Under the pieces are notes generated by a model, which saw only the letters and a program-made list of their open reading frames with translations, searched no databases and was not told the origin of the DNA. This document shows positions 6,265-32,608 of a stretch of DNA of 63,664 bases, one piece after another (positions within the stretch are counted from its first letter, which is position 1; each line of letters starts with the position of its first letter). A program made the translations under genes and the position numbers. This stretch comes from Anaerolineae bacterium. GTDB taxonomy: Bacteria > Chloroflexota > Anaerolineae > JAAEKA01. The DNA lies in NCBI GenBank assembly GCA_032111745.1, contig JAULUH010000156.1, forward strand, positions 1-63,664, given 5' to 3'.

Positions 6265-6293
6265 TTGACACCCAGAACACTTGTTCGTATAAT
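6265..6293 (+). promoter_or_regulatory. Consensus sigma70-type promoter TTGACA-17-TATAAT
   Basis: TTGACAcccagaacacttgttcgTATAAT. It is followed by AGGAG and the ATG at 6312, giving a very short leader. Confidence 0.7.
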
Positions 6294-6311
6294 AGAATCA
6301 GGAGCCGTTCC

Positions 6312-7594: not shown

Positions 7595-8028
7595 AGTGAC
7601 ATCAGCAACGAGCCAGTGATCTGGCAAGGGCCAGAGTACGCTGACTCCTGGTATCGGAGATGTCCTATCTACAGGGCATCGCCAGTATTGTGTGAATGAT
7701 CAGTTCATCGTGGCTGCACTGCGTCGATGCTGAAGGAACTGAGCATGGCACGGCCGAGACGAGGGCATACTGCAAGCCCTCTTCCCCTCGAATGCTCCGC
7801 AGGTATCTGGTCCGCAGGGGATGCCTCTTGCAGAGGGCATAGCATCGCGGCGAACGCCTACCTCCCTTCCACCGTTGGTCATGGAGCCGGGAGCTGGCCA
7901 TTGCCGGCAATGGTGGCCCGAGATTGTCGCAAGACCCGACTGATGCGCACCACGCAAGCTGATCCCCCTGGCCGGTCAGGCCATTTCATGAGAACAGCGT
8001 TATAGGGTCATTGACCAGAGGAGGAGTC
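7595..8028 (+). promoter_or_regulatory. Long (~430 nt) 5' leader of the giant CDS; possible cis-regulatory RNA or uORF
   Basis: No convincing CDS lies between the promoter and the GGAGGAG-ATG at 8029. Several local hairpins occur (e.g. gagggc-N9-gccctc). No riboswitch class was recognised by eye. Confidence 0.3.
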
Positions 8029-11000: not shown

Positions 11001-13614
11001 CCATGGTGAGATCCACACTGTGCCCGCATTCTACTACCGGCACTTCACCACAGAGCGGCGCAATAATCGGGATTGGGTCTATCCGGATCCATCTGGAGAC
11101 ACCTGGAAGATCCGCTTCACACCACCCCTGCCCGGAACCTGGAGCCTGGTCCTCTCGGCGGAGGATGCGGGTGGCTCAGCCACCTCTGAGGTCTATACCA
11201 TCGAGGTGCCAGAAGCTGCGAAACCCGGCTTCCTCGAAGTTAGCCCCACCGATCCTCGCTACTTTCAACGGGAGAACGGCACCTACTTCTCAGGCCTGGG
11301 CTTCAACACAGCCTGGCAGGAATTCGACTGGAACAATCCCACCACCGCCGAGGCGCGCATACGGTCGAACGCCAACTACGGCATCAACCTGTTGCGGTAC
11401 TGGCCCAGCGAGATGCCCCTGTTCGGCGGCCTGATCAACCCGTTGCGCCAATGGGACGCCGACCAGACCGGCGATACCGAGCCAGCCATCAGCCTGTTCG
11501 ACGCTGATAACCAACCGGGACCCGGTTACTCCGCAGAGGTCTTGTGGCGCCTACACACGACCCGGGGCAGCAATTTCACACGCTTCCTAGCCCTGGGTTG
11601 GTTGACCGAACCGCTGGCGGTCAAGCCCGACACCACCTACCGCGTCTCCCTGAAGCTGCTCATCCCGCAAGACCTGCTGCCCGCGGCAGCCGGTGACGCC
11701 GGTTTCGTGATCAAAAGCCATCCCGGCTGGCTGGATGCCGACCAGGGGGTTAGCAACATGTTTGGCCAGCCCCAATCTGCCTACCATCTCTCGACCGAGG
11801 AGCGGTGGCAGACTGTGTCCTGCCTCTATACCACGGGCAGCGCCGAATACTACCTGCCCTGGCTGTATTTCGCGCTGGTGAATGTGGCGGCCGACGAGAA
11901 GATCGTCTACTTCGACGATGTACAAATTGCGGAGAGCCTCGGGGGAGGACGCTACGGGCCCAACCTGTTCGACAAGGGCGTGGCGTCTCAACATGAGTAC
12001 GTCAGCCAGCGCTATTCATGGGCCCTGGATCACTTCCTCGACTACGCCGGGCACCAGGGGGTTGCGCTCAAGCTAGTGCTGTTGGAGAAGAACGACAGCA
12101 TCTTCTGCCGGATCGGGGAGGATGGATCTGTAGGTGTAGACTACAGCAATGACAACTTCTACGGTCCGGCGGACCAGAGCGTGACCCGGAGCCGTTGGCT
12201 GCAGCAGGCGTTCTGGCGCTACTGTCAGGCCCGCTGGGGCTATTCGACGGCCGTCCATTCCTGGGAGTTGTGCAACGAGGGTGACCCAGGGAGTGTGCGC
12301 CACTACAATCTAGCCCAGTTCATGGCTGCCTACTTCAACACATTCACAGCCAACCATCACCCCAGCACCACCTCCTTCTGGGCCGGCTTTCCGGCCAAGG
12401 AGTTTTGGCAGAACAACGACTACCCCGATGTGGGCTATGCCGATCTGCACCGCTACGTCTTTGAAGCCGAGCCTGAATGGAACGATACGGCCCGCGCCCA
12501 CATCAACCACGCCATGCAGCTACCTTTCACCGGCCAGCCAGTCATGCGCGGCGAGACGATGGTCGTCGAAGGCGACACCTCCTCCTATGCCAAGCTACTG
12601 CTGAAGGATACCGGAGGCATCTGGTTGAAACACTGGCTGTGGTCGCAGCTACACTGGGACCAGCTCTACGAACTGTTCTGGTATGCCCGCCAGGTGATCA
12701 CCCAGGAGGACCCGCCGGGCAAGGACCAGCGGAAGCACTTCCTGGCACTGGCACGTTTCCTGGAGGGGATCCCCATCCACAACGGCAACTACGAGGATCT
12801 CGGTGCCACGGCCCGGGGCTATCTCGTGGTGGGCCAGAAGGACCGTATCAACGACCGAGCGCACTTCTGGGTCCGCGCGGATGGAAAGGTGCCCTACACC
12901 TGGGTGAACGTCGTCAACAAGGCTGCCATCACCAAGGTGACGTCGGACATCATCATACCGGACATGACTCCCAGGAGGAAGTACGCCGTGTCCAGCATCG
13001 ACACCAGCAACGGGGTGTCGGTGATCGACAGTGTGATGGTGTCCGCCAATAGGGACGGTATTTTGATCCTGAGGAGCAGCCAGTTCAAGGCGCTGCGCGG
13101 CCTGACAGGCGACGTGGCGTTCAAGGTCGAGACCGGTAAAGGAGCCAAGAGAGAGGTCACGGTGAGCACGCACAAGTATCACCAGCTGGGTACCTTGAGG
13201 ACCTACATGAACGCCGAACTGGATGGCCTGCCTGAAGGCGCTAACCGGGCCGGCCAGCCAGTCAACTTCACCATCGATCGAGCCATGTACATGGCGGTGG
13301 AACTGTCCGTCGCCAAGCAGGCCGGCCCCCGGGCTCCTGGGGCCCAGATCGCCCTCTATGCCATGCGTTCCGTGGACGACGTCAACTACGGCTATGGGGG
13401 CGACGACCTGGATCCCCCCCCTACCGACCTACTATGCACGTTGGCGTTGGATGCATCCCCCGAGGCGCGCCTGCTCACCATGGACGGGCTGCGCGCGCCA
13501 GCCACCCGAGCCAAAATCCTGGTGAAGAACCTCACCGGGCAACCGCTGGCAGACAGTGGCAACATGCTCCGCTACCGCCTGTATACAACAATCAGCGAGA
13601 CCGAGGCGTCATAA
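8029..13614 (+). CDS. Giant multidomain glycan-active protein. Domains: PQQ-like beta-propeller, helical region, DUF5060-like Ig domain, GH5-like TIM barrel with CBM-like insert, C-terminal beta domains
   Basis: GGAGGAG SD before ATG MSWTTQF; the track TTG start at 8011 is unlikely. Propeller motifs: HNGYVYFTCLDHRIYKVNADTGAEVWSWE, GVFYALTDHG, MDGHVYRANAANGS. DUF5060-like: HFTDPHGEIHTVPAFYY...WKIRFTPPLPGTWSL. GH5-type acid/base motif: HSWELCNEGDP. CBM4/9-like: VYFDDVQIAE. No N-terminal signal peptide. Confidence 0.85.
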   Translation: MSWTTQFGSPTRTSYTSIDRADTAMVGHAYMEFEPYIGTWVQPVSNATGTVVFFPAADGVRAINIDPGNSPYMSVRWGFPTKRPVEDTVTFHNGYVYFTCLDHRIYKVNADTGAEVWSWEGPAGFSVNPLVVTVGGDVMVFAGCRNGVFYALTDHGSSASVAWEFDTGYPVLNSATANANSNTTVVWWCSMDGHVYRANAANGSSRVQSAKLLTAGFRMAPVVYDSSNDLLYVSIERNWKQATERGPGTWDASQMVIGPSIESWWLRQGEADESNNGIWFWKRVTGVNGPWPGGASSTVIDFLQDPDDTRYRRSLGMFDDSPNGDGKAEYRNLIILNGTTMAEKTWDFGDGVQRRAPILNHDGHTRPRPGIAILPDGTAVFYMLSVDNQYISVAYLYRWVPGSRYAWPVPGSAHNQDEAMQPTVGPVWADAPYGWEHGTDGNKHSSASGGKASFTNFDAFSPRCGADSYFQGPYDASMGGAYLAFGGSKGIYCPLQPYGHQVILSETCVVYLAYNCLIMWTTTGTDEKARVGNVVPRMDTSTAHPLPSVSVADVQARLEAEVASVLSLSGGNKLLRPAYVSHSNLDRTAENETANIPYNLQYERDLARTYVALCSAAEHVGNPAPIKAYIKWLWQNYPPYNQPGLIAWTGEAREWSTIPDGAWKDGDGNSRNLETDWVTYEQGPWGWNPYRVYATMRVCQVLADDPDIDPADAWDYLFEHWSGSGVFADTFAYKDTPYETDQIDKKDALIACYAAGMIGAKWICEQVGDTVRAAQCDTKLADLAQKYDDAWTNPFRPLGVAGTDDPYPITGLGSQIPWKTGRIWNLSRWWYWMTPEFAEYLQDNHADIVATMQNGIAEYWSLAPYWYLTHFHASMNEATMGPLHDRSMLQGEALFGRESQQDLFSLLDIPAYTGDMLYIQNLVMALEASSPPSAPTFGAISVPSATPQYDTVEIDFDLSTVATNLFLPYDSAPPAGQVTVGVTVDAHFTDPHGEIHTVPAFYYRHFTTERRNNRDWVYPDPSGDTWKIRFTPPLPGTWSLVLSAEDAGGSATSEVYTIEVPEAAKPGFLEVSPTDPRYFQRENGTYFSGLGFNTAWQEFDWNNPTTAEARIRSNANYGINLLRYWPSEMPLFGGLINPLRQWDADQTGDTEPAISLFDADNQPGPGYSAEVLWRLHTTRGSNFTRFLALGWLTEPLAVKPDTTYRVSLKLLIPQDLLPAAAGDAGFVIKSHPGWLDADQGVSNMFGQPQSAYHLSTEERWQTVSCLYTTGSAEYYLPWLYFALVNVAADEKIVYFDDVQIAESLGGGRYGPNLFDKGVASQHEYVSQRYSWALDHFLDYAGHQGVALKLVLLEKNDSIFCRIGEDGSVGVDYSNDNFYGPADQSVTRSRWLQQAFWRYCQARWGYSTAVHSWELCNEGDPGSVRHYNLAQFMAAYFNTFTANHHPSTTSFWAGFPAKEFWQNNDYPDVGYADLHRYVFEAEPEWNDTARAHINHAMQLPFTGQPVMRGETMVVEGDTSSYAKLLLKDTGGIWLKHWLWSQLHWDQLYELFWYARQVITQEDPPGKDQRKHFLALARFLEGIPIHNGNYEDLGATARGYLVVGQKDRINDRAHFWVRADGKVPYTWVNVVNKAAITKVTSDIIIPDMTPRRKYAVSSIDTSNGVSVIDSVMVSANRDGILILRSSQFKALRGLTGDVAFKVETGKGAKREVTVSTHKYHQLGTLRTYMNAELDGLPEGANRAGQPVNFTIDRAMYMAVELSVAKQAGPRAPGAQIALYAMRSVDDVNYGYGGDDLDPPPTDLLCTLALDASPEARLLTMDGLRAPATRAKILVKNLTGQPLADSGNMLRYRLYTTISETEAS

Positions 13615-13763: not shown

Positions 13764-15422
13764 CTATTTGGCGCCCGTGCCAGCCCCTGGTAATAGCCGG
13801 CGCCAATCCTGCGGCTTGCTCCGGCGGCCCTGGCTGCCGCCAGTGCCACCATCACCACCGCCGCCCTCTTCATCCTGGCTGTAGTACTGGTGGTAGTAGT
13901 AGTAGTAGTATGAGCCACTACCGCGCGGCTGTATGCGGTTCAGCGACACGCCCAGGATATTCGCACCAACCTTCTCCAGCGCCTCCTTGGCGTTCTGAGC
14001 TATCTGGCGCCGGGTGATCCCGGCCTCGACCACCAACACCACACCGTCGGTCTGCCGGGCCAGGATGGCCGCATCGGTCACGGCCAGCGTCGGCGGGCTG
14101 TCCAGCAGAACTACATCGGCGCGATCCGCCAGCTGATGCAGCAGGTCGCGGAAGCGCTCCGAGCCCAGCATCTCCGCCGGGTTAGGGGGTAGTGGCCCCG
14201 TGGTAAGCACCTGCAGGTTTTCGTAGCGCGTATCCTGCAACAGGCTGTCCAGGTCGGGCTGGACTTGCAGCAAGGCGTTGGACAGGCCGATGCTGTTGGG
14301 CAGCTGGAACAGCCGGTGCAGGGTCGGCCGCCGCAGGTCAGTGTCCATCAGGATCACGCGCTGGCCCTGCTGGGCCATCACCAACCCCAGGTTGGCCAGG
14401 GTCGTGCTCTTGCCCTCACTGGGGCTGGAGCTGGTGATCATCAAGGTGCGAGGTGGATTGTCCAGCGCCGAGAACTGGATGTTGGTGCGCAAGATGCGGT
14501 AGGCTTCGGCAGTGGGAGACTTGGGCTGCAGCCCGGCCACGAGCTTCTGCTCCGGCGACTCGCCCTCGATCTGCGTCACGGCACCCAGGGTGGTTAGATC
14601 CAGCGAGTTCTTAATATCGTCGGGATTCTTCAACGTGTCGTCGAGGTAGTCCAACAGAAAGGCCGCCCCCAGGGCCAGCAGCATGCCGATCGCCGCGGCC
14701 AGCACGATGGTCAGGGCTTTGTTGGGTCCAATAGGCTCCGTGGGCAGCTCGGCCGGCGCGACGACGTTGACGGCATTGATGCCGCCGCCTACGAAGCCCA
14801 GGAGCTGGGCATAGTTGGCCTGATAGGTGGTCAGTTTCTGTTCCAGGGCTTGGATCTGGGTCTGGGTGTCGGCGATCTGGCGCGCGCTGAACATATTGCC
14901 CAGCTGCTGCCTGAGCTCGTCAACTCGAACGGTGGTTTCGTCGATGTTCCGTTCCAGGTCCTGCAGCTGCTTGGTCACGAAATCACGCCGATCCTGGGTT
15001 ACCTTGGCAACGCCGCTGGGGCTCTGCTCGATCAACTGGTTCGCCAGCTCGTTGGCTACGGCCTGCGCGCGCTGGGGGCTGGTGTCCGCAACGCTAATCT
15101 CGATCAACTGCGTGTTTGGCACCAGAGACACCGAATAGTTGGGCAACCATTTCAAGCCCAAGGCCTGCATCGTCGCCAGGCGCACCGTATCGCGACGAGC
15201 CAGCTCGGCGTAGGTCTGGGCCAACTGCTGGCCCAGCCACAGGTCGTTGGCTACCGGGTTGGGGTTCTCGATGGTGCTGCCGATCATCAGCGTCGTCTTG
15301 GCGCTGTAGACCGATGGTTGCTGGCGCGTAGCGATAAAACTGGCTGCCATCGCCACCAGGGTCGACAACAGGATAAGCCACAGCCATTTGCGAATGGTTT
15401 GAAAGTACTGGCGAAGTTCCAT
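13764..15422 (-). CDS. Polysaccharide co-polymerase (Wzz domain) fused to BY tyrosine autokinase
   Basis: N-terminal Wzz-like TM plus coiled-coil region. Walker A SSSPSEGKSTTLANLG, DTDLRRP, Walker B VVLLDSPP. C-terminal Tyr cluster GSGSYYYYYYHQYYSQ. Confidence 0.9.
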   Translation of the reverse strand: MELRQYFQTIRKWLWLILLSTLVAMAASFIATRQQPSVYSAKTTLMIGSTIENPNPVANDLWLGQQLAQTYAELARRDTVRLATMQALGLKWLPNYSVSLVPNTQLIEISVADTSPQRAQAVANELANQLIEQSPSGVAKVTQDRRDFVTKQLQDLERNIDETTVRVDELRQQLGNMFSARQIADTQTQIQALEQKLTTYQANYAQLLGFVGGGINAVNVVAPAELPTEPIGPNKALTIVLAAAIGMLLALGAAFLLDYLDDTLKNPDDIKNSLDLTTLGAVTQIEGESPEQKLVAGLQPKSPTAEAYRILRTNIQFSALDNPPRTLMITSSSPSEGKSTTLANLGLVMAQQGQRVILMDTDLRRPTLHRLFQLPNSIGLSNALLQVQPDLDSLLQDTRYENLQVLTTGPLPPNPAEMLGSERFRDLLHQLADRADVVLLDSPPTLAVTDAAILARQTDGVVLVVEAGITRRQIAQNAKEALEKVGANILGVSLNRIQPRGSGSYYYYYYHQYYSQDEEGGGGDGGTGGSQGRRSKPQDWRRLLPGAGTGAK

Positions 15423-15439: not shown

Positions 15440-17752
15440 TCACTTGATCCAGACCGGTTCCCAATCGTTGTGTTGATTGCTACTCACGTTGCGCAGGCTG
15501 GTACCGTTGGCGTTCATCACCCATAGCTGACGCCGGCCCTCACCGCGGTTGGAGTAGAACAGAATCTGGCTGCCGTCGGACGACCACGCCGGGGAGCGAT
15601 CCCACTCCCAGGTGTTGCGCGTCAGTTGGCGCAGATCGCTGCCGTCGCGTGCCACCAGGTAAACCTCGTCGTTGCCGGAGGAGTTGGAGACCAGGGCCAC
15701 GGTCTCGCCGCCAGGCGACCATACGGCATCAAAGGTGGCGCCTCGCACGCTGACCAGGCGCCGCCGGGAGCCGTCGATCTCATTCTGCACGATGACCTGG
15801 GGCCGGCGAGCCAGGTCCAGCTCCTCGAGCAGGCGCTCGGTGCCATCAGGCGATAGGGCCTGGCGAGCCACCGCGGCCTGGTAGGCCGGCAGATCCTCTG
15901 CCAGCAAGGGCTCTGCCTGGGTGCAGCCTTCCGTGCTGTTGACGCAAGCCGCATCGGCCACGAAGAGCTGGGGGGCTCCCAGCCGGTCGGACAGGAACAC
16001 GATCTTGTTGCGTAGCCGGTCCGGCACATCGCTCTCCGCCGGAATCGTGGGCAGCGGTGTCGCCGTGGGCACCTCCACCGCGACCTGGTTGGCCGGCGGC
16101 GTACCTGTGGTCAACGCACTGATGGTGGCATAGGCCGCCTGGGCCACCGCCGTCTGCTCGTTGGCTGCTGGCCCCAGGGACAAAGGCGTGGGGGTGGCCG
16201 TAGTGACCCCTGGTAGTGACACCACGGGCGGGCCCGCCTCCACGGTACGGGTAGCCTCGGCGATCGCATAGGCCAGTTGCGTAGCCACATTCTCCGCCGT
16301 CGGCGTATTGGTTACCACAGCCAGAATCGGCGTGGGCGTGGCGGTCACAGCATAGTCCGGAATCGGCGTCCACGTGCCTGTAGTCAGGGCCTGGGCCGTC
16401 GCGTACACGGCAATGGCCGTGGCTGTGGCATCATTGGCCGGCACGAGGGTCGGAATCACCACAGGCGGCAACCCCAGGGACTGGCGCTCTGCGTCCGCGG
16501 TTTCCTGGTTAACCGGTGTGGGCGTTGCGGTTACCATCGCGCGTGGGGTTGGCGCCGGTGTGCCGACCTCCATCGCAAAAGCGGTGGCGCTCAGGGCAAT
16601 AGCCGCGGCCGTCAACACGTTCTCCGGCGTTGGGGTGCTGGTCACCACAATGAAATCCCGGGTCGGAATCGGCGGCGGCGTGGCCGGAGGTGGGCCGTTG
16701 ATCACAATCAGCCTCGGGCTATTGCCCAGGGTCTCGGGTCCCTGGCCCGAGTCCCACGTGAACAGGTTATCAGGACCAGTCTCCGGGCCATCCAACCGAA
16801 ACACCAGCTGTGTCTTCTGATCGACGACCGCCTGCTCCAATACCTTCAACTGCTCTTCGCTGAGCACGAAGCGATTGGAGACCAGCGGCTTCACCTCTGT
16901 CTGGGCCACAGGAGGAACCAGGGACTGCACAACCGGGGCGTTGTGTAGTTCCTGATAGGTCAGCTGGCTCCAGCTCTCACCAACCTGGGGGGCCATCAAC
17001 TTGACCTCCCAGATGCCGTTGGCGCCTGGTTCCAGCCGGCTGTCGTCCAGGCCGGTGATCTCCAATGCCACATAGCGGATGGGCGCGCCGCGGGGGAGAC
17101 GGGACAGGTCAAATAGGATGGCACTGTGGATCAGGGCCTCCTGATACTTGCCGGCGTGCAGGAAAGAGTCGCCAAAATAGCTGTCGCGCGAGTCAAGGCT
17201 GCCGAACCATCCCACCCCAGCGGGCGATGGTGTGATCTCCACGCGAACCTCATCGCCGGCGATGGTTGGCACTGCGCCAGGCGCTTGGGCCACTGGCACC
17301 GAACCTGGCGCGTCCGCCAGTAGGGGCGGGGGTGGGGTTGGGATTGCACTGGTCGTGCTCGGGGCTGGCGCTGTCTCCGCCACCGTCGCCGGCGTGGGGG
17401 TGGAGGCACCAGGGGCAGCCAGCAAGCGTATCAGCTGCCATCCGGCGAGGAGCGCCACGACGCCGACCGCAGCCCATAGCACCCACCGCAGCCACGGCAC
17501 AGCCCGCTGCGGAGTTGCTGATTCGTTTTCATTATGCAAGGCGACGGGAGAGCCCTGAAGGCGCGCCTGAAAGCGCGGGCAATTGACGTGCTCTGCCGTC
17601 AAGCAATAATGGCTTTGGTGCTCTGCACTGGGCGAGTGCTCCCCGTCGCTGGGGAGAGCAAAACAGCGATGGCTCTCGCTGGCATAGCTGTAGCGCAAAG
17701 CCGGGTCGCTCTTGAGGCCCACATAGGGGCATACAACATCACCAGTTGGCAT
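15440..17752 (-). CDS. Membrane protein: Cys/His-rich cytoplasmic N-terminus, TM helix, Pro/Thr-rich region, TolB-like (PD40) beta-propeller
   Basis: Start placed at ATG MPTGDVVCPYVGL; the track start 17836 is a TTG. N-terminal motif: CPYVGL...HRCFA...HYCLTAEHVNCPRF. TM helix: WVLWAAVGVVALLAGWQLI. C-terminal PD40-type repeats: VWSPGGETVALVSNSSGNDEVYLV, PAWSSDGSQILFYSNRGEGRRQLWVMN. Confidence 0.75.
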   Translation of the reverse strand: MPTGDVVCPYVGLKSDPALRYSYASESHRCFALPSDGEHSPSAEHQSHYCLTAEHVNCPRFQARLQGSPVALHNENESATPQRAVPWLRWVLWAAVGVVALLAGWQLIRLLAAPGASTPTPATVAETAPAPSTTSAIPTPPPPLLADAPGSVPVAQAPGAVPTIAGDEVRVEITPSPAGVGWFGSLDSRDSYFGDSFLHAGKYQEALIHSAILFDLSRLPRGAPIRYVALEITGLDDSRLEPGANGIWEVKLMAPQVGESWSQLTYQELHNAPVVQSLVPPVAQTEVKPLVSNRFVLSEEQLKVLEQAVVDQKTQLVFRLDGPETGPDNLFTWDSGQGPETLGNSPRLIVINGPPPATPPPIPTRDFIVVTSTPTPENVLTAAAIALSATAFAMEVGTPAPTPRAMVTATPTPVNQETADAERQSLGLPPVVIPTLVPANDATATAIAVYATAQALTTGTWTPIPDYAVTATPTPILAVVTNTPTAENVATQLAYAIAEATRTVEAGPPVVSLPGVTTATPTPLSLGPAANEQTAVAQAAYATISALTTGTPPANQVAVEVPTATPLPTIPAESDVPDRLRNKIVFLSDRLGAPQLFVADAACVNSTEGCTQAEPLLAEDLPAYQAAVARQALSPDGTERLLEELDLARRPQVIVQNEIDGSRRRLVSVRGATFDAVWSPGGETVALVSNSSGNDEVYLVARDGSDLRQLTRNTWEWDRSPAWSSDGSQILFYSNRGEGRRQLWVMNANGTSLRNVSSNQHNDWEPVWIK

Positions 17753-17870
17753 CAGAAGCTTTGTTTTTCCTTTTTTCACCTGTGGAGTCGACACTCGGTG
17801 GAGCGCGATTATACCACCTTCACAAGGCCGGGACAATTCGGGCGGTCGAGCTTGCGCCCCTTCATGCCCG

Positions 17871-18731
17871 TTACCCTTCCATCTGCCCCCTTGCTGCGGA
17901 CAAGGCCTCCAACAGAAATGGCCACAGGTCCGTTGTAGGACGATAACGCAGGCGGTACGCGGGTACCTGCGCCGCCAGGCGTTCCACCACGGCCAGCCAG
18001 GCCAGGGCGCTGGATACCCGCTCTACGGCCACCTTTTCGGTCGCCAGCAGGCCCAGCGCGGCCTGGCCGGGATCCAGCGGCTCCAGCGCAAACTCTGGCC
18101 CATGTTCCAGTAGCAGCAAGGCCTGCAGAGGCAGGCGACGGTTACGGCGTTGCACCATTTCCGGCGGCGTACTGGCGCCCCAAAATGGCGTGCTCGCCAG
18201 CATGGGCTGCGTCCCGGCCAGTGACACCACCAGGGTCTCGTCCGTCAACACCTCCGCATATCCCGCCGCCAGCCGCGATAGCGTGGTCTTGCCTGCACCC
18301 GATGGCCCGCAGCAGGCCAGGCCCATGCCGTCCAACACGATCGCTGCGCCGTGCAACAGCAGCCCCTCATGTTCCCGGGGTAGGGCCTGCATGCAGATGA
18401 AGCCCAGCACCCGATCCAGGGCCGATGGCGCCCGTTCCGGCGACGGCGTGCTGACCTCAGCCCGTCGCTCGACCAGGTCGATCCATCCTTCGTGTGCGGA
18501 GACTCCGAAGCGAGTCACGTCGCCCTCGTGCACAACCCAGGGCGCGTCCTGGTCGGACCGGCTGGCAGCGTGGATCACGGCCACATCCCAGGGAGGCATC
18601 TCGCCCGCCGGCGCGCCTACCGGCAGACCAAATTCAGCATAGCGCGCGACCAGGGCCGCCAGCCAGGTGCGCTCCGGCACGTGCACCACGCAGCGCACGC
18701 CGGCGATGTCAACGGTGAAGTCGTGGAACAT
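17871..18731 (-). CDS. HPr kinase/phosphorylase-like (HprK-related) P-loop protein
   Basis: 286 aa. The C-terminal half has LLLHGAAIVLDGMGLACCGPSGAGKTTLSRL, matching the HprK C-terminal P-loop. No HPr or PTS context is present. Confidence 0.75.
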   Translation of the reverse strand: MFHDFTVDIAGVRCVVHVPERTWLAALVARYAEFGLPVGAPAGEMPPWDVAVIHAASRSDQDAPWVVHEGDVTRFGVSAHEGWIDLVERRAEVSTPSPERAPSALDRVLGFICMQALPREHEGLLLHGAAIVLDGMGLACCGPSGAGKTTLSRLAAGYAEVLTDETLVVSLAGTQPMLASTPFWGASTPPEMVQRRNRRLPLQALLLLEHGPEFALEPLDPGQAALGLLATEKVAVERVSSALAWLAVVERLAAQVPAYRLRYRPTTDLWPFLLEALSAARGQMEG

Positions 18732-18773
18732 AGGACTAGATGGCCAGTTCGCAGGGCGCGCTTCAGAGCGCCG

Positions 18774-19961
18774 CTACGAGCTAGGAGGCTTGGAGGACTG
18801 CGCCTGGCTGGTGAGCAGCTCCCGGAGGCCCAGCACCCAGCGGTAGGGATAGGCCAGGGGTACCAGCCAGTCGCTGTCAAGGGCGTAGCGCTGCCGCATA
18901 TAGTTGCGTGATGGAAACAGATGGGCCAGGGCAAAGGGCACTCGGGCCCGCCAGCCTGGTAGGCCGGCCAGGTCGGCCCAGAAGCGCTGGGCCACCGGTC
19001 GCTCCGGCGCAGTGAGCCAGCTCACCACGCGCTGCTCCACCGGCGATACCGGCAGGGCCAGCGCCTCGGCCAGCTGCGCCTCAGGAATGGGTACCGCCCA
19101 CTCCCCGGCCAGCTCTGCCAACACGCGCTGCACGGGCGTCACCAGGTGAAATGCGCCGGCCTTCTCAAGCAACATATCCCAATCGATCAGGGCGCCGGAC
19201 AGTGCCACCAGGGTGGCGATGTCATAGAACCAGCGCAGCCCCACCCCTTTGTGATGCAGCACCAGGTGCGCCGACAGATAGAGCAGATTAGCCTCCGGGC
19301 TCAGCACCTGCGCAGGCCGCCCGGCCAAAGTGAGTTCTCGGGCCGTCTGCCAGAACCAGTCCGTGGCCAGCCTCTCCTGGTAGTAGGGTGCATCTAGTAG
19401 ATACCAGTGGATTTCCAGGGTCACCGGCACCACGCCCGGCCGCCGCAGGGTGATCTCGTTCTCGTACGCCAGGGTCAGCCCGGGGTGCGGCTCATCGTGA
19501 ACCCGCCCGTAGCCCAGGGCCTCCAGCTGCGCCACTGCGGCCAGAACGTCGTCAGCGCGAAACAACAGATCGACGTCGGTCATCGGGCGCAGGGCAGCGT
19601 TGCCGTATAATTCCTCGCCCAGAGCTGCGCCCTTGAGCACGATCACAGGTAGGCCTGCGGCGGCCAGCGAGTCCAGCGCCTCGGCCAGCCCCATGCCGAC
19701 ATAGGCATTCTGGATCGCGGTCTGCTGGTAGATCCACAGCAGTGCTTCCTCCACCGGGGCTGGCACCAGGTCACGACCGCGCACTGCGTCGTAAAGCAAT
19801 GGCCCCACGCCCACCGGCCCGACATGTTCCAGAAGGCCAGGCCAGTCCAACTCGGGTCTGGTGGCCTCGCTGCGCGCAGCGTCCAGCGCCGCCGGTTCCC
19901 AACGGCTACGCAGGCATTGCACGAGGAAATCCCAGGTTGGTTGATCCAATTGAGCAGGCAT
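18774..19961 (-). CDS. Uncharacterised nucleotidyltransferase family protein (NTP_transf_5-like)
   Basis: VIVLKGAALGEELYGNAALRPMTDVDLLF and TLEIHWYLLD motifs typical of this family. The start is 9 nt after the C25 gene stop. Confidence 0.7.
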   Translation of the reverse strand: MPAQLDQPTWDFLVQCLRSRWEPAALDAARSEATRPELDWPGLLEHVGPVGVGPLLYDAVRGRDLVPAPVEEALLWIYQQTAIQNAYVGMGLAEALDSLAAAGLPVIVLKGAALGEELYGNAALRPMTDVDLLFRADDVLAAVAQLEALGYGRVHDEPHPGLTLAYENEITLRRPGVVPVTLEIHWYLLDAPYYQERLATDWFWQTARELTLAGRPAQVLSPEANLLYLSAHLVLHHKGVGLRWFYDIATLVALSGALIDWDMLLEKAGAFHLVTPVQRVLAELAGEWAVPIPEAQLAEALALPVSPVEQRVVSWLTAPERPVAQRFWADLAGLPGWRARVPFALAHLFPSRNYMRQRYALDSDWLVPLAYPYRWVLGLRELLTSQAQSSKPPSS

Positions 19962-19970
19962 GCATTGCTC

Positions 19971-22898
19971 TCAGTGCGCCGCTGCCGGCACCAGAGCCCA
20001 ACCTTTCGTCACGTGGGGCAGGTACATCCTGCCTCCAGACGGCACGCGCAACCGGAGCGCAGGATCACCCAAGAAGACCGTGGTGTCCACGACGTCGCGT
20101 GAGCTACTGCCACCGGCGATGAAATAGGCCTTCGCCGCGTTAACCGCGAGCCCTGCCCGGTCTGTTCGATCCTGGAAGATGGCCCTCGACAATCCCTGGT
20201 CCAGCCCCAGCAGGGAACCGCCTACGTGAAGCCCGGTAGGCGACAGGTCAGCCACCACACCCCGGCCTGGAGTGAGCAGCAGCACTTCGCCCAGGGAGCG
20301 CTCGTCAAAATTGTACGTGGCGATGCTCTGAATGCCGACGAAGTAGCCGGACCAACAGGTGTAGTGGGCGCTGAAAGGTAGGCCCGCCCCAGGGGCGAGG
20401 GTAGCAGGATCGAGAGTGTTGAATACGTCGACGGTTCCCCAGCGGAAGCGCGAGGCGTGGCCGTACCACTGCAGGTAGAGGGCACCTTCGGCAAACGCGG
20501 TCTTGATGGCAGCACGTACCTCAGGGCCCGAATCGTGGGCACTATCCATGTTGAAGTAGATCGCCCGGCTCTGTGTGCCGGGGGGCAGGGCCAGGCGCAC
20601 CGTGTCGCTGAGCCGGTGGAAGTTGCCGGCAGGATCTGCGTTGTTGTCGGCCACGAACACTGCCCGGCGCTGCCAGCTACCCGCTGGCGCAGTCTTTTCG
20701 TAGGCGATGATCTTGTCGACCACGGCCGTGACGTCTGCGGGGGTCTTGGCCGGGATGCGGCCTAGCGCCATGTCGGGCATGTAGTCATTTGGGCCGTCCA
20801 CGCTGACATAGCGGTTGTCTGCAGCGGTCTCACCGATGAACGGATCGATGTGCAGCAGATAGGGAGGGAGAAGGTTGGGCAGGCTGGGAGCCACCGCACC
20901 CTTGAAGTCGATGTGGCCATCTCCCACCAGTAACACGTACTGCGGCGGCGCTTGGCCCGCATTCCAGTTGCGGTAGGCGTAGGAAAGGAAGGAGCGGATC
21001 GCCTCCGGATCCACACGGCCGAAGCTGAACTCGTCGTAGATGTCCTGCACGTCCACCTTGGCCACCCGCAGCCCTTCGGCGGCCCGATGGTTCAGTAAGG
21101 GCTGGACAGCATCCCAGAGGGAGAAGTGGACGATGGCGATGTAATCGGCCCGGTTGCCCGGGGCGCGCCAACTCGAGGGCTGGTCCACTTCCACCGCCCT
21201 GGGCGCCAGCAGGCCAGCATCGCTGCTAAGCACGTAGCGAGGCGCGGCATCCGCAGCCTGCCAGGCATCCCAGAAGCGTATCGTGGTGCTGCCGCCCACG
21301 GCCTCGGCCTGCACGGTGCCCAGCTGCACCGGGCGCAGGGGATTGCGCACGTCCAACACCCGCACGGCACCGGTGGTGAACCCGGTGACAGACACCTGCG
21401 CGCGCTGGCCAGTGACGGCCAGGCCGTCGATCCCGATTTGGTCGTTCTCGGCGTCAGCGCGCGCTGGATATGTGATCTCCACCCAGTCAGGCGAGACCCA
21501 ATAGCTGGAAACAGTGGGCAGCTGGGCTAGCGCGGCCTCCAGGGTAATACGGCTGGGGGAGGTGTCGAGCCAGGCCGCGGGCACCGCGGCCTGGGCTACG
21601 AACGGGGTGCTGCCATCCCAGGTGAACACTCCGGCTGGCTGGCCGTTCACCTGCAGGGCCACGGACTGGTCGGGCGCCGCGGCCTGGGACTGGCCGCCGT
21701 GCAGGCGAGCACGGATGGTGGCGGAATTGGACTTAGAACTTAACGGCGAATGGGTAGAAGGCGGAACGGATAGCGCTTGCGGGGCCAGGTCATCGAGGAC
21801 AAAGTCGTAGGTCACACGGGCGGTGGGGGACTGGGTGTTGACAGAGAGCGGGTTGTCGAAGAAATGGTCGACGTCCCTGGGAAGGGGGTAGGTACTGTAG
21901 TAGATCCGGTCGAACTCGACCCGCGCGGTTTGGAGGATGGTGATGACGAGAGGCTCGGAACCGGTGGGGGGCACGTCGCGGCGTTGCACACGGCCGCCGG
22001 CCGCGCCGCCATAGGCCAGACGGTAGACGTTGCGCGTCGTATAACGGCCCTCGTAGGGCTCGCCGTAGAAGACCACCAGGTCACCAGCATCGAAGCGGCC
22101 ATCGTCGCTGCCGGTCACCAGGATATCCACTGGCTGGCCCAGATAGGTCATGGAGAAAGTGGCCGGGTTCAACGAAGCCACGGGCACGCCCGCGGCCTGC
22201 AGCTCGCCATAGGTCAGGCGATACAGGCCGCCGCGCCCGGTGTAGACACGCACTGCACCCTGCTCCGCGGCGGGTTGCTGTGCAACCGCGGTAACGGGCT
22301 CGAGTGCCTCCGGCTCCGGGGCCACAGGCGTAAACGACAGGGTAATCCCTAGGTCGGGATGATAACGCAGCTGGCCAGATACAGGGTTAACCTGGAACGG
22401 GAACACGGTTACCGGCAATAGTCGCCGGCCGCGCTGGACCAGTTCGGGGCCGGTCACGACCGGGCTGGCGGGGTAAAAGGCATCGGAGGTGTAGATGACG
22501 GGGTCAGGCCGGTCCACCAAGGGTACCGATCCTGGCAGGTCGGGTTGGGTCGTCCAGCTCTCTGGGTAGTTAAGGTCCAGCTCCGGCACGGGTACTGCCG
22601 GTAGCGTGCCGGGAGCCGCCAGCACTTGCGGGCCGGTCGACTCATAGACCAGGTGCCACTGGCCCTCGGGCGGCAGCTCCACCAGCGTCGACCACACAGG
22701 CAACGCCGGCGCGCCGGGCGTGTCGTGCGCGGCGTAGCCCTCCACGCGCAGGCCATCACCGTCAAGGTGGTAGGTGGGAGTCTGCACGCGCAGGGTGATC
22801 GGCTCAGGCTGTTCAGGCCTCGCCGCAGCGGGCGTCACAGAGGCCAAAAGCACGCCAACGACCAGTAAGAGGGCTAAGGCTTTCGTACGAATCGACAA
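19971..22898 (-). CDS. Secreted peptidase C25 (gingipain-like) family protein
   Basis: TTG start with GAGGA SD and signal peptide ALALLLVVGVLLASVTPAAA. C25 core: YVLLVGDGHIDF...DNRYVSVDGPNDYMPDMALGRIPA. Putative catalytic His in LQWYGHASRF and Cys in SAHYTCWSGYF. Confidence 0.8.
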   Translation of the reverse strand: MSIRTKALALLLVVGVLLASVTPAAARPEQPEPITLRVQTPTYHLDGDGLRVEGYAAHDTPGAPALPVWSTLVELPPEGQWHLVYESTGPQVLAAPGTLPAVPVPELDLNYPESWTTQPDLPGSVPLVDRPDPVIYTSDAFYPASPVVTGPELVQRGRRLLPVTVFPFQVNPVSGQLRYHPDLGITLSFTPVAPEPEALEPVTAVAQQPAAEQGAVRVYTGRGGLYRLTYGELQAAGVPVASLNPATFSMTYLGQPVDILVTGSDDGRFDAGDLVVFYGEPYEGRYTTRNVYRLAYGGAAGGRVQRRDVPPTGSEPLVITILQTARVEFDRIYYSTYPLPRDVDHFFDNPLSVNTQSPTARVTYDFVLDDLAPQALSVPPSTHSPLSSKSNSATIRARLHGGQSQAAAPDQSVALQVNGQPAGVFTWDGSTPFVAQAAVPAAWLDTSPSRITLEAALAQLPTVSSYWVSPDWVEITYPARADAENDQIGIDGLAVTGQRAQVSVTGFTTGAVRVLDVRNPLRPVQLGTVQAEAVGGSTTIRFWDAWQAADAAPRYVLSSDAGLLAPRAVEVDQPSSWRAPGNRADYIAIVHFSLWDAVQPLLNHRAAEGLRVAKVDVQDIYDEFSFGRVDPEAIRSFLSYAYRNWNAGQAPPQYVLLVGDGHIDFKGAVAPSLPNLLPPYLLHIDPFIGETAADNRYVSVDGPNDYMPDMALGRIPAKTPADVTAVVDKIIAYEKTAPAGSWQRRAVFVADNNADPAGNFHRLSDTVRLALPPGTQSRAIYFNMDSAHDSGPEVRAAIKTAFAEGALYLQWYGHASRFRWGTVDVFNTLDPATLAPGAGLPFSAHYTCWSGYFVGIQSIATYNFDERSLGEVLLLTPGRGVVADLSPTGLHVGGSLLGLDQGLSRAIFQDRTDRAGLAVNAAKAYFIAGGSSSRDVVDTTVFLGDPALRLRVPSGGRMYLPHVTKGWALVPAAAH

Positions 22899-23053: not shown

Positions 23054-24622
23054 CTAGCGCTTGCGGCGCTGCGCCACGAACGCTGCGGCCATGGCCAGGC
23101 CGGCCGTGACCGGGACAGCCACCAGCGGCAGGCTCGCCGCGGCAGCACTACCGGCGTTCGCGCTCTGGCTGGAGAACTCGCTCAGGGTGACCGCGGTGGG
23201 ATCCAGGCAGGCGGCGCCGGCCGGCCCGCTGAGAGCAGTGGCTCCGCCGAGGTCGACGCTCTCGACCCAGTAGTAGTATGTATTGCCGGTAACGGCCGTG
23301 CTGTCCACGAATTGGTAGGCAGCACCAGTGGTGCTACCGGGGACCTTGGACGGGATCAACGCGGCGTTGACCTGCTCCCGGGCACCGTCAACCGCAGTGC
23401 TGCGGTACACGTTGAAGCCCTGGTTATTTACCTCGCTCACCGTCTCCCAGGAGACCGTGGCGACGCCGGCGGAGCAGGTGGCTCCCAGGCTGGACATTTC
23501 CAGCGCAGTCGGACCTGCGGTATTGGTGAAAATGCACGTGGTGATCTCGCCCAAGGCCACATCCACCGTGACCTTCCGGTTGGTCAGGTCAACGTTGCCT
23601 GTGGTCTGCCCGTTCCTGGTGCACACCAGGCTGGACAGGGTCCAGCCCTCTTCGCCAAGATCGAACACCTCCTCCACCGTGTAGCTGCCGGCTTCGGCGA
23701 TGATCAGCTTTTTGGGATCCTGCGTATCGGTCAGAGAAAAGGTCTGGGTGTAGTCATTCGGGCCTGTGACGCCGAAGTCGAACACGTGGTTGGCACCCGG
23801 TGGATTGGTCACCTTGTCGACGATGATTTGCCCCGGCGCAATAATCTTGCCCCACAGGCAGGCCACGTTGTCGGTGCGTTCCTCGGTGATGAACTCCGTC
23901 TTCGTGCTGTCTTCGCCGGGGAACACCTGCTCAAGGCAGTTGCCGTTGGGCGGATCGGGGACGAAGCCCAGAATCTGCAGGGTGTATTCGGTACCTTCGC
24001 ATACGAAGGTAGTGCTGGGCACGCTGTCCACGGTCACCCTGTCCGGACATATCGTGTCTCCCTCATATTTGCACGGTTCCTGGTTAAAAGTCTCCTCGAG
24101 GTTGAATCGGTAGACCAACTCCGGTGTCACCGTGGAGTTGTCATTGCAGGTCACTGGTACCTTCACGGTCAGGTCCACGTAGTTGAGCGGATTCGGGAAG
24201 TTCAGCAGCGGGTTATTGTAATGAGTGAACTGGCCGAGGTAGAAGGGGGTCTGGGGAGCCAGATCGCCAACATCGTTATTGCCGTCGAAGCCGAAGCCGC
24301 TGCGGTCGCCAATGGGGCCGCAGTTCTCTCCAACCTCGCCATAGCGCACCTGGTTTTCGTCAGTGTCAGGCGGTGTCTGTATGGCTGGATCAGATTCGCT
24401 GCTTGCGGTCGGGAAGTCTCCCGGCCCAGTGGCCCAGGCATCACAGGTAGCTCCCTCTTCGTGAATTCCTGGCTTGGCATCTGGGATACCCCACACGCCG
24501 TCGACATTGCCCACGGCCAGAGCCGAGGCCACGGCGACGAGCAGCAACGTGATCACTGTAGCCAGCGTCACGGCTCTCGCTCCAACCGGTAGATGTCGCG
24601 ATATTCGCTTGCGAAAGGACAT
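23054..24622 (-). CDS. Secreted multidomain surface protein with C-terminal anchor-like tail
   Basis: Start set at AAGGAGG-ATG MSFRKRISRH (track start 24712 unlikely) with signal peptide VTLATVITLLLVAVASALA. A prealbumin/SpaA-like module (IIVDKVTNPPG...CIFTNT) is followed by an FN3-like 'WETVSEVNNQGFNVYRS...YYYWVESVD' module. C-terminus: AVTLSEFSS...LPLVAVPVTAGLAMAAAFVAQRRKR. Confidence 0.8.
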   Translation of the reverse strand: MSFRKRISRHLPVGARAVTLATVITLLLVAVASALAVGNVDGVWGIPDAKPGIHEEGATCDAWATGPGDFPTASSESDPAIQTPPDTDENQVRYGEVGENCGPIGDRSGFGFDGNNDVGDLAPQTPFYLGQFTHYNNPLLNFPNPLNYVDLTVKVPVTCNDNSTVTPELVYRFNLEETFNQEPCKYEGDTICPDRVTVDSVPSTTFVCEGTEYTLQILGFVPDPPNGNCLEQVFPGEDSTKTEFITEERTDNVACLWGKIIAPGQIIVDKVTNPPGANHVFDFGVTGPNDYTQTFSLTDTQDPKKLIIAEAGSYTVEEVFDLGEEGWTLSSLVCTRNGQTTGNVDLTNRKVTVDVALGEITTCIFTNTAGPTALEMSSLGATCSAGVATVSWETVSEVNNQGFNVYRSTAVDGAREQVNAALIPSKVPGSTTGAAYQFVDSTAVTGNTYYYWVESVDLGGATALSGPAGAACLDPTAVTLSEFSSQSANAGSAAAASLPLVAVPVTAGLAMAAAFVAQRRKR

Positions 24623-25095
24623 GGATTCCTCCTTGCCACTGGGGCAACTTGTGCGGAGATGTCTCACACACTCAATGAACTGCAGCACGGAATGTGCGCT
24701 GATCCGACTCAAGAGATGGGCTGGCGTCCATCACGGGCCTACCGATGGAGAACCCTTGGCTTCATGTGCTGCTAGCCAACCTTCCGGCCACGTGATCGAG
24801 GACCGGGCTGGGCGCCCGGGACAGGACCTTGGCTCCATCCGATCCAAGGGCTGAAGTCGAAGGAAGCCGGGAGGGATGCCCTGAACACAGCAGCATCCGC
24901 ATCATGGCCGTGACGTGATGCGACCGCGGCCATGATGCGAGCTTCTTCAGGGGTGACAACGGATCAAGCCCGGTTCCCACCAGGCAGGCCCTAACGGCCA
25001 GAGAGCACGGTTCTGGGTCGGCACAGGGCCAGCTACCATCCATGGGACAGCAGGCCGTGAAGCGCCAGATGGATCCGTTGATCGTCAGGAGTGCT

Positions 25096-25290
25096 CTAGC
25101 AAACGCCGGTATCGCCGGCAGATGTGGCCAGAGGGCCCAGGAAGTTCTGCGGTCCCTCGATCGACTGCGGAGGGAAGCTCTCCTGGGCGCGAGCTTCCAG
25201 CGTTCGCTCGAACACGATGGATGGCTTCTCCCACGAGCGGCGGCTCGGGGATGCGATGGTCGTCGACGTCAGTCTGGACGGAGTCTGCAT
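25096..25290 (-). CDS. Candidate precursor peptide (64 aa) of the adjacent radical SAM/PqqD cassette
   Basis: AGGAGG SD 5 nt before ATG, 43 nt downstream of the rSAM stop on the same strand. Third-position GC is high, as in neighbouring genes. Sequence: MQTPSRLTSTTIASPSRRSWEKPSIVFERTLEARAQESFPPQSIEGPQNFLGPLATSAGDTGVC. Confidence 0.55.
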   Translation of the reverse strand: MQTPSRLTSTTIASPSRRSWEKPSIVFERTLEARAQESFPPQSIEGPQNFLGPLATSAGDTGVC

Positions 25291-25333
25291 GAAATCCTCC
25301 TATGAGTGGTCAAACTGATAGCTTGGTCGCGGT

Positions 25334-26560: not shown

Positions 26561-26575
26561 GTCCAACTGCTCAAC

Positions 26576-26848
26576 TCATTCTACCCAATCCACCAGGCCC
26601 CTGGTCTCCAGGTCAGAGAGAAACTCCGCCACCTGCTGTCGGGCCTCGGACAGCGACACCTCAAAGTCCTGGGTCAGGAGGGCGGCAATCTCATCCATGG
26701 TGCGGCTGCCGTCGGCCAGTTCCCAGATGCGCGACCCGGTGGGATTCAACATGCGCACCGTGTTCTCGGCCGGGCTGATGATAACGGCGTCCTGGCCGAA
26801 GACTCGCGAGGCCGTGCGTGGGCTGTGTAGGGGCTTGCGCTGATCCAC
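26576..26848 (-). CDS. PqqD-family protein (RiPP recognition element-type peptide chaperone)
   Basis: 90 aa with AGGAG SD and a GTG start. VIISPAENTVRMLNPTGSRIWELADGSRTMDEIAALLTQDFEVSLSEARQQVAEFLSDLETRGLV is a textbook PqqD/RRE pattern. Confidence 0.85.
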   Translation of the reverse strand: MDQRKPLHSPRTASRVFGQDAVIISPAENTVRMLNPTGSRIWELADGSRTMDEIAALLTQDFEVSLSEARQQVAEFLSDLETRGLVDWVE

Positions 26849-26876: not shown

Positions 26877-26905
26877 ATTCTAAAGCAAGTCTAAACGGCT
26901 GTCAA
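26877..26905 (-). promoter_or_regulatory. Sigma70-type promoter TTGACA-17-TAGAAT for the PqqD-rSAM-peptide unit
   Basis: Minus strand reads TTGACAgccgtttagacttgcttTAGAAT in the 92-nt gap after the sugar-transferase stop, ~22 nt upstream of the PqqD start. Confidence 0.6.
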
Positions 26906-32175: not shown

Positions 32176-32176
32176 C

Positions 32177-32602: not shown

Positions 32603-32608
32603 GACTCA

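Follow-up and report, generated by a model that had tools for sequence, protein, structure and literature searches.

The locus examined here raises the question of what a kinase-like and a nucleotidyltransferase-like gene do side by side where no phosphotransferase system (PTS) is encoded. It lies in a 63,664-nucleotide stretch of DNA from an Anaerolineae bacterium (GenBank assembly GCA_032111745.1, contig JAULUH010000156.1, positions 1 to 63,664), which is referred to as the window. Chloroflexota of the Anaerolineae type are filamentous, for the most part uncultured, and abundant in sludge, sediments, and mats. The initial annotation of the window had described two adjacent minus-strand open reading frames (ORFs) of 286 and 395 aa as an HPr-kinase-type protein and an NTP_transf_5 nucleotidyltransferase, and had suggested that the pair tailors a peptide or protein rather than regulating carbon metabolism. 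Both ORFs were recovered with their motifs (Table 1), and so was their setting: 42 nt between the two genes, 9 nt between the stop of an upstream C25 peptidase gene (19971) and the start of the 395-aa ORF (19961), and genes for a TolB-like protein and a bacterial tyrosine kinase (BY-kinase) downstream. The absence of a PTS context was borne out by Pfam scans of approximately 50 window ORFs, which detected no PTS, HPr, or CcpA-type genes.

Our answer, held with somewhat less than even confidence, is that the pair would be the cytoplasmic tailoring module of a conserved, Chloroflexota-restricted cassette in cell-surface and exopolysaccharide (EPS) loci, and that this cassette would mature a small peptide.

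Results

Family, fold, and conserved residues of the two proteins

The designation of the 286-aa protein as HPr-kinase-type stood for its catalytic core and fell for its family. Pfam Hpr_kinase gave no match at E<0.01, a Pfam scan of the protein returned only a weak match to AAA_33, and TIGR00679, the model for HPr kinase/phosphorylase (HprK/P), was matched by one of 20 aligned homologues (E 0.0047). Searches with the models for the HprK-related kinases A and B (TIGR04352 and TIGR04355), which the initial annotation had recommended, yielded 18.3 and 21.3 bits against a cut-off of 200. The best NCBIfam match was to TIGR04249 (ScmC), with 30.9 bits against a cut-off of 125. ScmC was also the top NCBIfam match in all 20 aligned homologues, 18 of which matched HprK_rel_B and 16 HprK_rel_A, in every case with scores well short of the curated cut-offs; all three are P-loop families tied by NCBIfam to PqqD peptide systems. 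The Pfam family PF27840 ("ScmC") is assigned to the window protein and to all 120 listed homologues, a membership taken from the precomputed Pfam assignment of this newer family. By these profile scores, the 286-aa protein lies outside HprK/P, HprK_rel_A, and HprK_rel_B and is no genuine HPr kinase.

An AlphaFold (AF2) model of the ScmC protein (pLDDT 93.9) was compared with known structures using Foldseek. ATP-dependent phosphoenolpyruvate carboxykinase (PEPCK) was matched across both domains (E ~1e-8, TM-score ~0.5), and the C-terminal catalytic domain of HprK/P at target-normalized TM-scores of 0.52-0.56; both domains of the model fit PEPCK better than HprK/P. The model thus places the protein in the PEPCK/HprK fold superfamily. 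In the alignment of 20 homologues, H127, the P-loop residues G142/S144/G145/G147/K148/T150, and the acidic pair D164-E165 were invariant. The His, P-loop, and acidic pair align with LHG, GDSGIGKS, and ADD of HprK/P from S. xylosus (1ko7), to which the protein also gave a weak profile match (E 0.0016). Because these invariant residues align with the HprK/P motifs, the phosphotransfer machinery is judged intact.

The protein database contained 252 homologues of the ScmC protein and 120 of the NTP_transf_5 protein. A profile search for ScmC returned 53 representative clusters (50% identity) at E<=1e-30, essentially the clade of the window protein, and 4,353 clusters at E<=1e-10, most of which match over the full length of proteins of ~270 aa. 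Thus, ScmC-like proteins form a large family, no member of which appears to have been characterized. The next-nearest clades likewise score below every curated NCBIfam cut-off.

The NTP_transf_5 assignment of the 395-aa protein was upheld at 164 bits against a cut-off of 31.2 (Pfam E 6e-48, profile positions 2-241 of 249). The Pol-beta-type nucleotidyltransferase motif (G...DxD) and core fold are present, and K110, G111, D129, D131, and H185 are invariant across 24 homologues of both sequence subtypes. For the core of its AlphaFold (AF2) model (pLDDT 93.5), the closest solved structures are two small-molecule nucleotidyltransferases (LnuA and ANT(2'')-Ia), a toxin (MenT1), and a ribitol-phosphate transferase (FKRP), and a sequence search against the PDB gave no match.

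In related loci the pair is often accompanied by a gene for a small S24/S26-like peptidase of 151-164 aa, which is absent from the window. This peptidase lacks an N-terminal membrane anchor, carries the boxes GxSMxPTL, GD, HRLV, and GDxxxxPD of Sec11/archaeal signal peptidases, and gives weak matches to TIGR02228 and Peptidase_S24. In two proteins, P0250 (558 aa) and P0356 (552 aa), NTP_transf_5 is naturally fused to the Sec11-like S24/S26 peptidase, with the motifs GKSMEPTL, VAHRLV, and QGDGR..PD.

The two sequence subtypes of NTP_transf_5 became apparent in loci L005, L009, and L013, which have the gene order of the window. Their C25, ScmC, TolB-like, and BY-kinase proteins are 56-74% identical to those of the window and their NTP_transf_5 proteins only 31-32%; other loci contain an NTP_transf_5 of a 45-57% identity type. 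The two subtypes seem able to fill the same slot.

A conserved precursor peptide beside PqqD and a radical SAM enzyme

The 64-aa peptide to which the initial annotation had pointed as a kinase substrate to be assayed proved to belong to a conserved family. Its gene starts 43 nt past the stop codon of a radical S-adenosylmethionine (SAM)/SPASM enzyme gene, and its motif was found in 21 related loci in addition to the window, always on the strand of the cassette. The family consensus comprises a leader WExPxIxLERxLE and a core GPLxxS(G-rich)C, in which W20, P23, E28, R29, and L31 of the leader and P53, S57, and C64 of the core are invariant in the alignment. Pfam and NCBIfam models gave no match to the peptide. 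A profile search yielded 145 homologues, none of them named by its source and none with a Pfam domain; the named sources were all Chloroflexi. The leader motif was present in 117 of the 145, among which 115 had GP[LF]xxS, 111 a single Cys, and 105 no more than 0-3 terminal residues after the Cys, with the invariant Ser mostly 5-8 residues before it.

The peptide is under purifying selection. Its ORF differs from that of locus L061 by 13 synonymous and 9 non-synonymous codons, 15 of the 25 nucleotide changes lie at third positions, and the AGGAGG Shine-Dalgarno site ahead of the gene is conserved between the two. From these sequence features, the 64-aa peptide is assigned to a real precursor family with at least 117 members. 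Two other ORFs in the gap between the radical SAM and surface-protein genes, 24762-25043 (-) and 25042-25305 (+), had no family matches and no conservation and were for this reason treated as non-coding.

The radical SAM/SPASM enzyme was sub-threshold for the StsB, MftC, PqqE, and ScmE models. Its gene directly precedes that of the peptide in 19 of 20 ScmC-anchored loci, and the gene after the peptide encodes a C25 peptidase in 14 and a surface protein in 5 of the 20. Directly upstream of the radical SAM/SPASM gene lies that of a PqqD-family protein, which the initial annotation had not named and which is 59% identical to PqqD of locus L003 (E 2e-33). The genes for PqqD, radical SAM/SPASM, peptide, C25, NTP_transf_5, and ScmC are all on one strand in the window. 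By gene content, the window has the generic layout of a cassette for peptides made on the ribosome and modified after translation (RiPPs) that depends on a RiPP recognition element (RRE) and a radical SAM/SPASM enzyme, with a short precursor encoded beside PqqD and the maturase.

Some loci (L022, L023, and L028) contain two copies of the precursor gene. In L028, the second copy (16402-16611) lies immediately ahead of the C25 gene and ends early, at the conserved Ser ('...FLGPLKLS'); this copy may be either a pseudogene cut short or a C-terminal-Ser variant.

Linkage of the cassette genes across Chloroflexota

A census in which one genome per species was scanned recovered 49 ScmC loci, which were annotated by BLASTP with the window proteins and proteins from a related locus. 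All 49 came from Chloroflexota, from lineages including Anaerolineales, Caldilineales, Ardenticatenales, Thermoflexales, Litorilinea, and 'Ca. Amarolinea'. For 26 species-representative loci at least 5 kb were available on either side of the ScmC gene (full loci). NTP_transf_5 and the small S24/S26-like peptidase were each present in 19 of these 26 loci, one or the other in all 26, and both in 12. The C25 peptidase occurred in 17, BY-kinase in 15, radical SAM/SPASM in 12, the conserved precursor peptide in 12, and PqqD in 11 full loci. The initial annotation had made its proposal depend on recurrent linkage to PqqD/radical SAM or EPS genes, and such linkage is what the census revealed.

Of 41 loci, 28 had the small peptidase gene and 11 the NTP_transf_5 gene directly upstream of ScmC; NTP_transf_5 lay within 900 bp upstream in 24 of the 41. 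In loci with room upstream of NTP_transf_5, the directly adjoining gene was BY-kinase in 14 of 27. Gene order varies among lineages, which argues for selected linkage.

Loci anchored on the peptide demonstrate that the modules of the cassette can separate. L059 contains the full gene set, L060 and L061 contain only PqqD, radical SAM, peptide, and C25, and in L058 the order is TolB-like, BY-kinase, NTP_transf_5, peptide, and C25, so that the peptide gene directly follows NTP_transf_5. In the ScmC locus L042, the peptide gene directly follows ScmC and no radical SAM gene lies within 10 kb. Downstream of ScmC in loci lacking the known peptide, a second conserved peptide was not found, only syntenic housekeeping genes (Pribosyltran, GMP synthase); from this shared synteny, 12 of those loci represent one related lineage.

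Proposed role of the pair and alternatives

Eight parts are joined by conserved linkage: a leader-bearing peptide, PqqD, radical SAM/SPASM, a P-loop phosphotransferase, a nucleotidyltransferase, a soluble Sec11-like peptidase, C25, and EPS machinery. As a genomic inference, tailoring of a peptide or protein rather than carbon regulation is thus supported, both by gene linkage and by the intact catalytic residues of ScmC. From the same data we infer substrate, acceptor residue, and chemistry of the pair. That it tailors the small ribosomal peptide is the interpretation we favor, although we would put its chances a little under one half.

In the pathway envisaged, PqqD would bind the leader WExPxIxLERxLE, and the radical SAM/SPASM enzyme would modify the core, most likely by forming a thioether from the single invariant Cys. 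ScmC would then use ATP to phosphorylate a hydroxyl group of the core, with Ser57 in GPLxxS as the best candidate, and NTP_transf_5, with an NTP or NDP-X as donor, would extend this phosphate or a hydroxyl close to it. The result could be a peptide that is nucleotidylylated or modified with a phospho-sugar or phospho-alcohol (compare ANT/LnuA, FKRP/LicD, and pseudomycoidin). The Sec11-like S24/S26 peptidase, whose gene is present in most relatives and not in the window, would cut off the leader. The mature product would act extracellularly together with the secreted C25 peptidase that is encoded right after the peptide gene in the order of many relatives. The specific chemistry, phosphorylation of Ser followed by extension, would account for only about half of the likelihood given to peptide tailoring as such.

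Several observations weigh against peptide tailoring. No peptide, PqqD, or radical SAM gene was found within 10 kb of ScmC in 14 of the 26 full loci. Since the peptide loci L058, L060, and L061 have no ScmC nearby, radical SAM and C25, and not ScmC, are the tightest partners of the peptide. Lasso kinases act on a C-terminal Ser, which the initial annotation had cited for lasso systems, whereas the candidate acceptor Ser here is internal, the invariant residue being followed by the C-terminal Cys at a distance of 5-8 residues. Membership of the lasso nucleotidyltransferases in PF14907 is presumed. The census loci come from related genomes and are not independent samples, 12 of them forming one syntenic group. 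Finally, the gene most often found directly upstream of NTP_transf_5 is BY-kinase, so that a role in polysaccharide synthesis would also fit.

Such a role would have ScmC phosphorylate a sugar or lipid of an exopolysaccharide or lipid-linked intermediate, and NTP_transf_5 attach a nucleotidyl or phospho-alcohol group to the glycan, much as LicD/FKRP enzymes act. It would suit the large polysaccharide locus of the window, the frequent BY-kinase neighbor, and the 14 full loci without peptide and radical SAM nearby. It would also agree with the ribitol-phosphate transferase FKRP and the small-molecule nucleotidyltransferases ANT/LnuA among the structural neighbors of NTP_transf_5, and with PEPCK, a small-molecule kinase, as the best structural match of ScmC. 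We nevertheless regard decoration of a glycan as unlikely. In most loci the Sec11-like peptidase gene separates NTP_transf_5 from ScmC, two proteins are fusions of this peptidase with NTP_transf_5, and the closest curated relatives of ScmC all come from PqqD peptide systems. Moreover, peptide genes adjoin ScmC (L042) and NTP_transf_5 (L058) without a radical SAM gene, and neither fold is that of the usual sugar kinase or sugar-1-phosphate nucleotidyltransferase.

Action on proteins appears improbable. No conserved Ser/Thr motif was identified in the tails of the surface proteins, the ScmC clade is no closer to HprK/P than to PEPCK, and the linked PqqD, radical SAM enzyme, leader-bearing peptide, and peptidase fusions fit peptide maturation better. 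ScmC would here serve as an HprK-like Ser/Thr kinase of BY-kinase, of the TolB-like export machinery, or of surface-protein tails, with NTP_transf_5 AMPylating or nucleotidylylating the same target. The proximity of BY-kinase and TolB/Tricorn-like genes to ScmC and NTP_transf_5 in the window and many loci would be consistent with this, as would the protein-kinase activity of HprK/P, which has this fold too, and the fact that neighboring surface proteins end in a transmembrane segment and a basic cytoplasm-facing tail.

A genuine HPr kinase/phosphorylase of carbon catabolite control with a coincidental NTP_transf_5 neighbor has a negligible probability: the P-loop, His, and acidic-pair core and the weak 1ko7 match are all that speaks for it, and this reading was rejected on the missing Pfam Hpr_kinase match, the single TIGR00679 match among 20 homologues, model domains nearer to PEPCK, the lack of PTS/HPr genes in the window, and a conserved gene neighborhood unrelated to carbon metabolism.

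A lasso cluster was also considered and rejected. Pfam scans of all large window ORFs revealed neither an Asn-synthetase-like lasso cyclase nor a transglutaminase-type B2 protease, and the locus is for that reason not a lasso system. Anti-phage defense was likewise dismissed: PADLOC gave no match for ScmC, NTP_transf_5, C25, PqqD, or the TolB-like protein, and the radical SAM enzyme showed generic viperin-level similarity only.

Maturation of the peptide could have a wider purpose. As a distinctly speculative extension, to which we give little credence, the product would not be an antibiotic-type RiPP; crosslinked through Cys and carrying phospho- or nucleotidyl-/glycosyl groups, the peptide would instead have a structural part as an adaptor in the cell envelope of Chloroflexota. 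It would be the primer, linker, or acceptor for the secreted PorU-like C25 enzyme, which would join to it surface proteins with the PTAVTL, transmembrane, and RRKR tail and/or the exopolysaccharide of the surrounding locus.

C25 peptidase, surface proteins, and other genes of the window

The features of the cassette and its immediate surroundings are collected in Table 1.

Table 1. Positions of the cassette genes and adjoining features in the window
Feature	Position	Strand	Remarks
BY-kinase/polysaccharide co-polymerase (Wzz + GNVR + eps_fam)	13764-15422	-	TIGR01007 198 bits, cut-off 108
TolB/Tricorn-like PD40 beta-propeller membrane protein	15440-17836	-	PD40 E 1e-11; homologues carry Tricorn_N + PD40
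ScmC-family P-loop phosphotransferase-like protein, PEPCK/HprK fold, predicted cytoplasmic	17871-18731	-	286 aa; P-loop CCGPSGAGKTTLS
NTP_transf_5 (PF14907) nucleotidyltransferase-fold protein, predicted cytoplasmic	18774-19961	-	395 aa; VLKGAALGEELYGNAALRPMTDVDLLF and TLEIHW
Secreted C25-family cysteine peptidase, PorU-like	19971-22898	-	975 aa; Peptidase_C25 E 1e-73
Choice-of-anchor-K surface protein	23054-24712	-	NF038131 59.8 bits, cut-off 30; 'PTAVTL', transmembrane segment, RRKR tail
Precursor peptide	25096-25290	-	64 aa; leader W20-E-K-P23-S-I-V-F-E28-R29-T-L31-E, core GP53LATS57AGDTGVC64
Radical SAM/SPASM peptide maturase-like enzyme	25334-26566	-	410 aa; Radical_SAM E 6e-24, SPASM E 9e-11
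PqqD-family peptide chaperone (RRE)	26576-26848	-	90 aa, GTG start; Pfam PqqD 65.8 bits, cut-off 23.4
Sigma-70-like promoter ahead of PqqD, radical SAM, and peptide genes	26877-26905	-	TTGACA-17-TAGAAT, 11/12; consensus match only
Priming polyprenyl glycosylphosphotransferase of the EPS locus	26941-28443	-	TIGR03025 368 bits, cut-off 296

The C25 protein begins with a signal-like hydrophobic segment, and its best NCBIfam matches were to PorU and PorU2; with NF033707, the model for the PorU sortase, it scored 198 bits, below the cut-off of 420. The true start of the neighboring choice-of-anchor-K protein is probably the ATG at 24622. This protein and those beside C25 in 12 other loci (L001, L006, L010, L011, L019, L023, L025, L027, L029, L039, L042, and L050) end in a shared module (~75 aa in the window protein) that consists of a (Y/F)(Y/W)YW(L/V)EDVDLxGxxTxHGPVSV domain, PTAVTL, a transmembrane helix, and an RRR/RRKR tail. 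The module is not represented by any model in Pfam or NCBIfam. In its architecture it looks like a tripartite sorting signal, and the PorU-like C25 enzyme could be the sortase of these surface proteins. A second class of C25 neighbors ends in 'WLP(L/M)(V/L)xRQ'.

The TolB-like ORF has a Cys/His-rich cytoplasmic stretch at its N terminus, a transmembrane segment at residues 112-131, and C-terminal PD40 repeats. A promoter-like site (10/12, extended -10) at 17836-17808 overlaps its annotated TTG start, and the true start is probably Met at residue 29. Just past the BY-kinase gene, a 1867-aa ORF (8011-13614, +) has similarity to PQQ-like beta-propellers and DUF5060 and no predicted transmembrane segment. 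A 470-aa radical SAM + HHH_3 protein (6081-7493, +) is retained at 74% identity in L005, L009, and L013, with its gene next to that of BY-kinase but on the other strand; it may belong to the neighborhood of the cassette.

From 26941 to ~62800 the window is a large polysaccharide locus. It contains the priming glycosylphosphotransferase, whose gene adjoins PqqD here as in L061, many GT1/GT2/GT4 enzymes, two Wzy-like proteins, a Wzm/Wzt ABC exporter, RmlD, DegT, a PglD-like acetyltransferase, and an epimerase. At its far end lies the third radical SAM protein of the window (568 aa, 61125-62831, -), which has no SPASM domain. Amid the glycosyltransferases, a HepT-like toxin gene was identified (31654-32175, -; PF20797 E 6e-32); the ORF overlapping it upstream (32085-32609, -) has no Pfam match and may be an MNT-type partner. 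A toxin-antitoxin function of the MenT/MNT kind was rejected for the NTP_transf_5 protein itself, in view of a likeness confined to the fold core, its length of 395 aa, and its conserved operon; the pair of which the HepT-like gene is part is a different one.

Significance of the cassette

The cassette gives one clade of the ScmC-like family a concrete candidate substrate, a short peptide containing a single Cys and an invariant Ser, together with a defined set of partners (PqqD, radical SAM/SPASM, NTP_transf_5, and the Sec11-like peptidase). If the chemistry proposed for the pair is right, modification by a kinase plus a nucleotidyltransferase would reach beyond lasso peptides, PF14907 and PF27840 would have their first function outside lasso clusters, and the biology of exopolysaccharides and surface proteins in Anaerolineae-type Chloroflexota would be tied to a pathway for a ribosomal peptide. 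Should the far less probable role of the product as an envelope adaptor apply, the cassette would represent a previously unknown protein-sorting or anchoring system built around a ribosomal peptide.

Comparison with known systems

With HprK/P and ATP-dependent PEPCK, ScmC has in common the fold and the catalytic core (His, GxxGxGK(T/S), acidic pair). It differs from both by the lack of family-level sequence membership, its compact two-domain architecture of ~280 aa, and an unrelated gene context. The HPr-rel-A system (TIGR04352 with the PqqD_rel_X family TIGR04353) and kinase B (TIGR04355) are PqqD-linked as well and contain distant homologues of the same P-loop core, but belong to different clades: against the cut-off of 200 the two kinase models reached only 18-21 bits, and PqqD_rel_X scored 26.9 against 35. 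The C25 enzyme resembles PorU, the C25 sortase of type IX secretion, and is encoded amid surface proteins with sorting-signal-like tails. Unlike in type IX secretion, its score is below the cut-off and the C-terminal signals consist of a motif, a transmembrane segment, and a basic tail instead of type IX C-terminal domains; the window showed no further type IX components.

Phosphorylated and phosphoglycosylated lasso peptides (paeninodin with PadeK; pseudomycoidin with PsmK and PsmN) likewise rely on an HprK-related kinase and a nucleotidyltransferase-fold enzyme. Both types of system have a PqqD-type leader binder, a precursor nearby, and a nucleotidyltransferase that is sometimes fused to the leader peptidase. 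The P0250 and P0356 fusions parallel the nucleotidyltransferase-B2 protease fusions of lasso clusters. Lasso clusters offer the only experimental precedent for tailoring by such a pair: the precursor receives a phosphate from an HprK homologue, hexoses are attached to that phosphate by a nucleotidyltransferase, and nucleotidyltransferases fused to proteases are present (PMC8498205). In contrast, the maturase of the Chloroflexota cassette is a radical SAM/SPASM enzyme, its peptidase is of the Sec11-like S24/S26 type, its peptide has an internal conserved Ser and a Cys end, and it is situated in EPS loci. By analogy, the pair may resemble the lasso kinase/nucleotidyltransferase duo in its action, yet the cluster lacks the hallmarks of lasso membership.

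The closest counterpart in terms of parts is SynChlorMet (NCBIfam TIGR04248-04251: ScmC, ScmD/PqqD, and the radical SAM/SPASM proteins ScmE and ScmF), which also combines a ScmC-type P-loop protein of ~280 aa with PqqD and radical SAM/SPASM. According to its TIGRFAMs description, the SynChlorMet cassette has two PqqE-like radical SAM/SPASM genes. The window cassette has a single one, the other two radical SAM genes of the window being distant and without SPASM, and all equivalog cut-offs were missed (ScmC 30.9/125, ScmD 35/100, ScmE 90.1/400, ScmF 79.8/400). Beyond SynChlorMet, the cassette of the window type adds NTP_transf_5, the Sec11-like peptidase, a secreted C25 peptidase, and the BY-kinase/EPS context, and its precursor peptide is identifiable. 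The window cassette is of the same kind as the SynChlorMet and HPr-rel-A cassettes, in which a P-loop HprK-related protein is paired with PqqD and in some cases also radical SAM, yet by its profile scores a member of neither.

The literature searched contained no description of the cassette, no mention of SynChlorMet, and PF14907 only in passing; no paper in it joins HPr kinase, PqqD, and radical SAM, and RiPPs together with HPr kinase led only to lasso papers and a general RiPP genome-mining survey. New relative to the known systems are the unnamed precursor family, the trio of NTP_transf_5, Sec11-like peptidase, and ScmC, the tight coupling of peptide and C25, and the restriction to polysaccharide loci of Chloroflexota.

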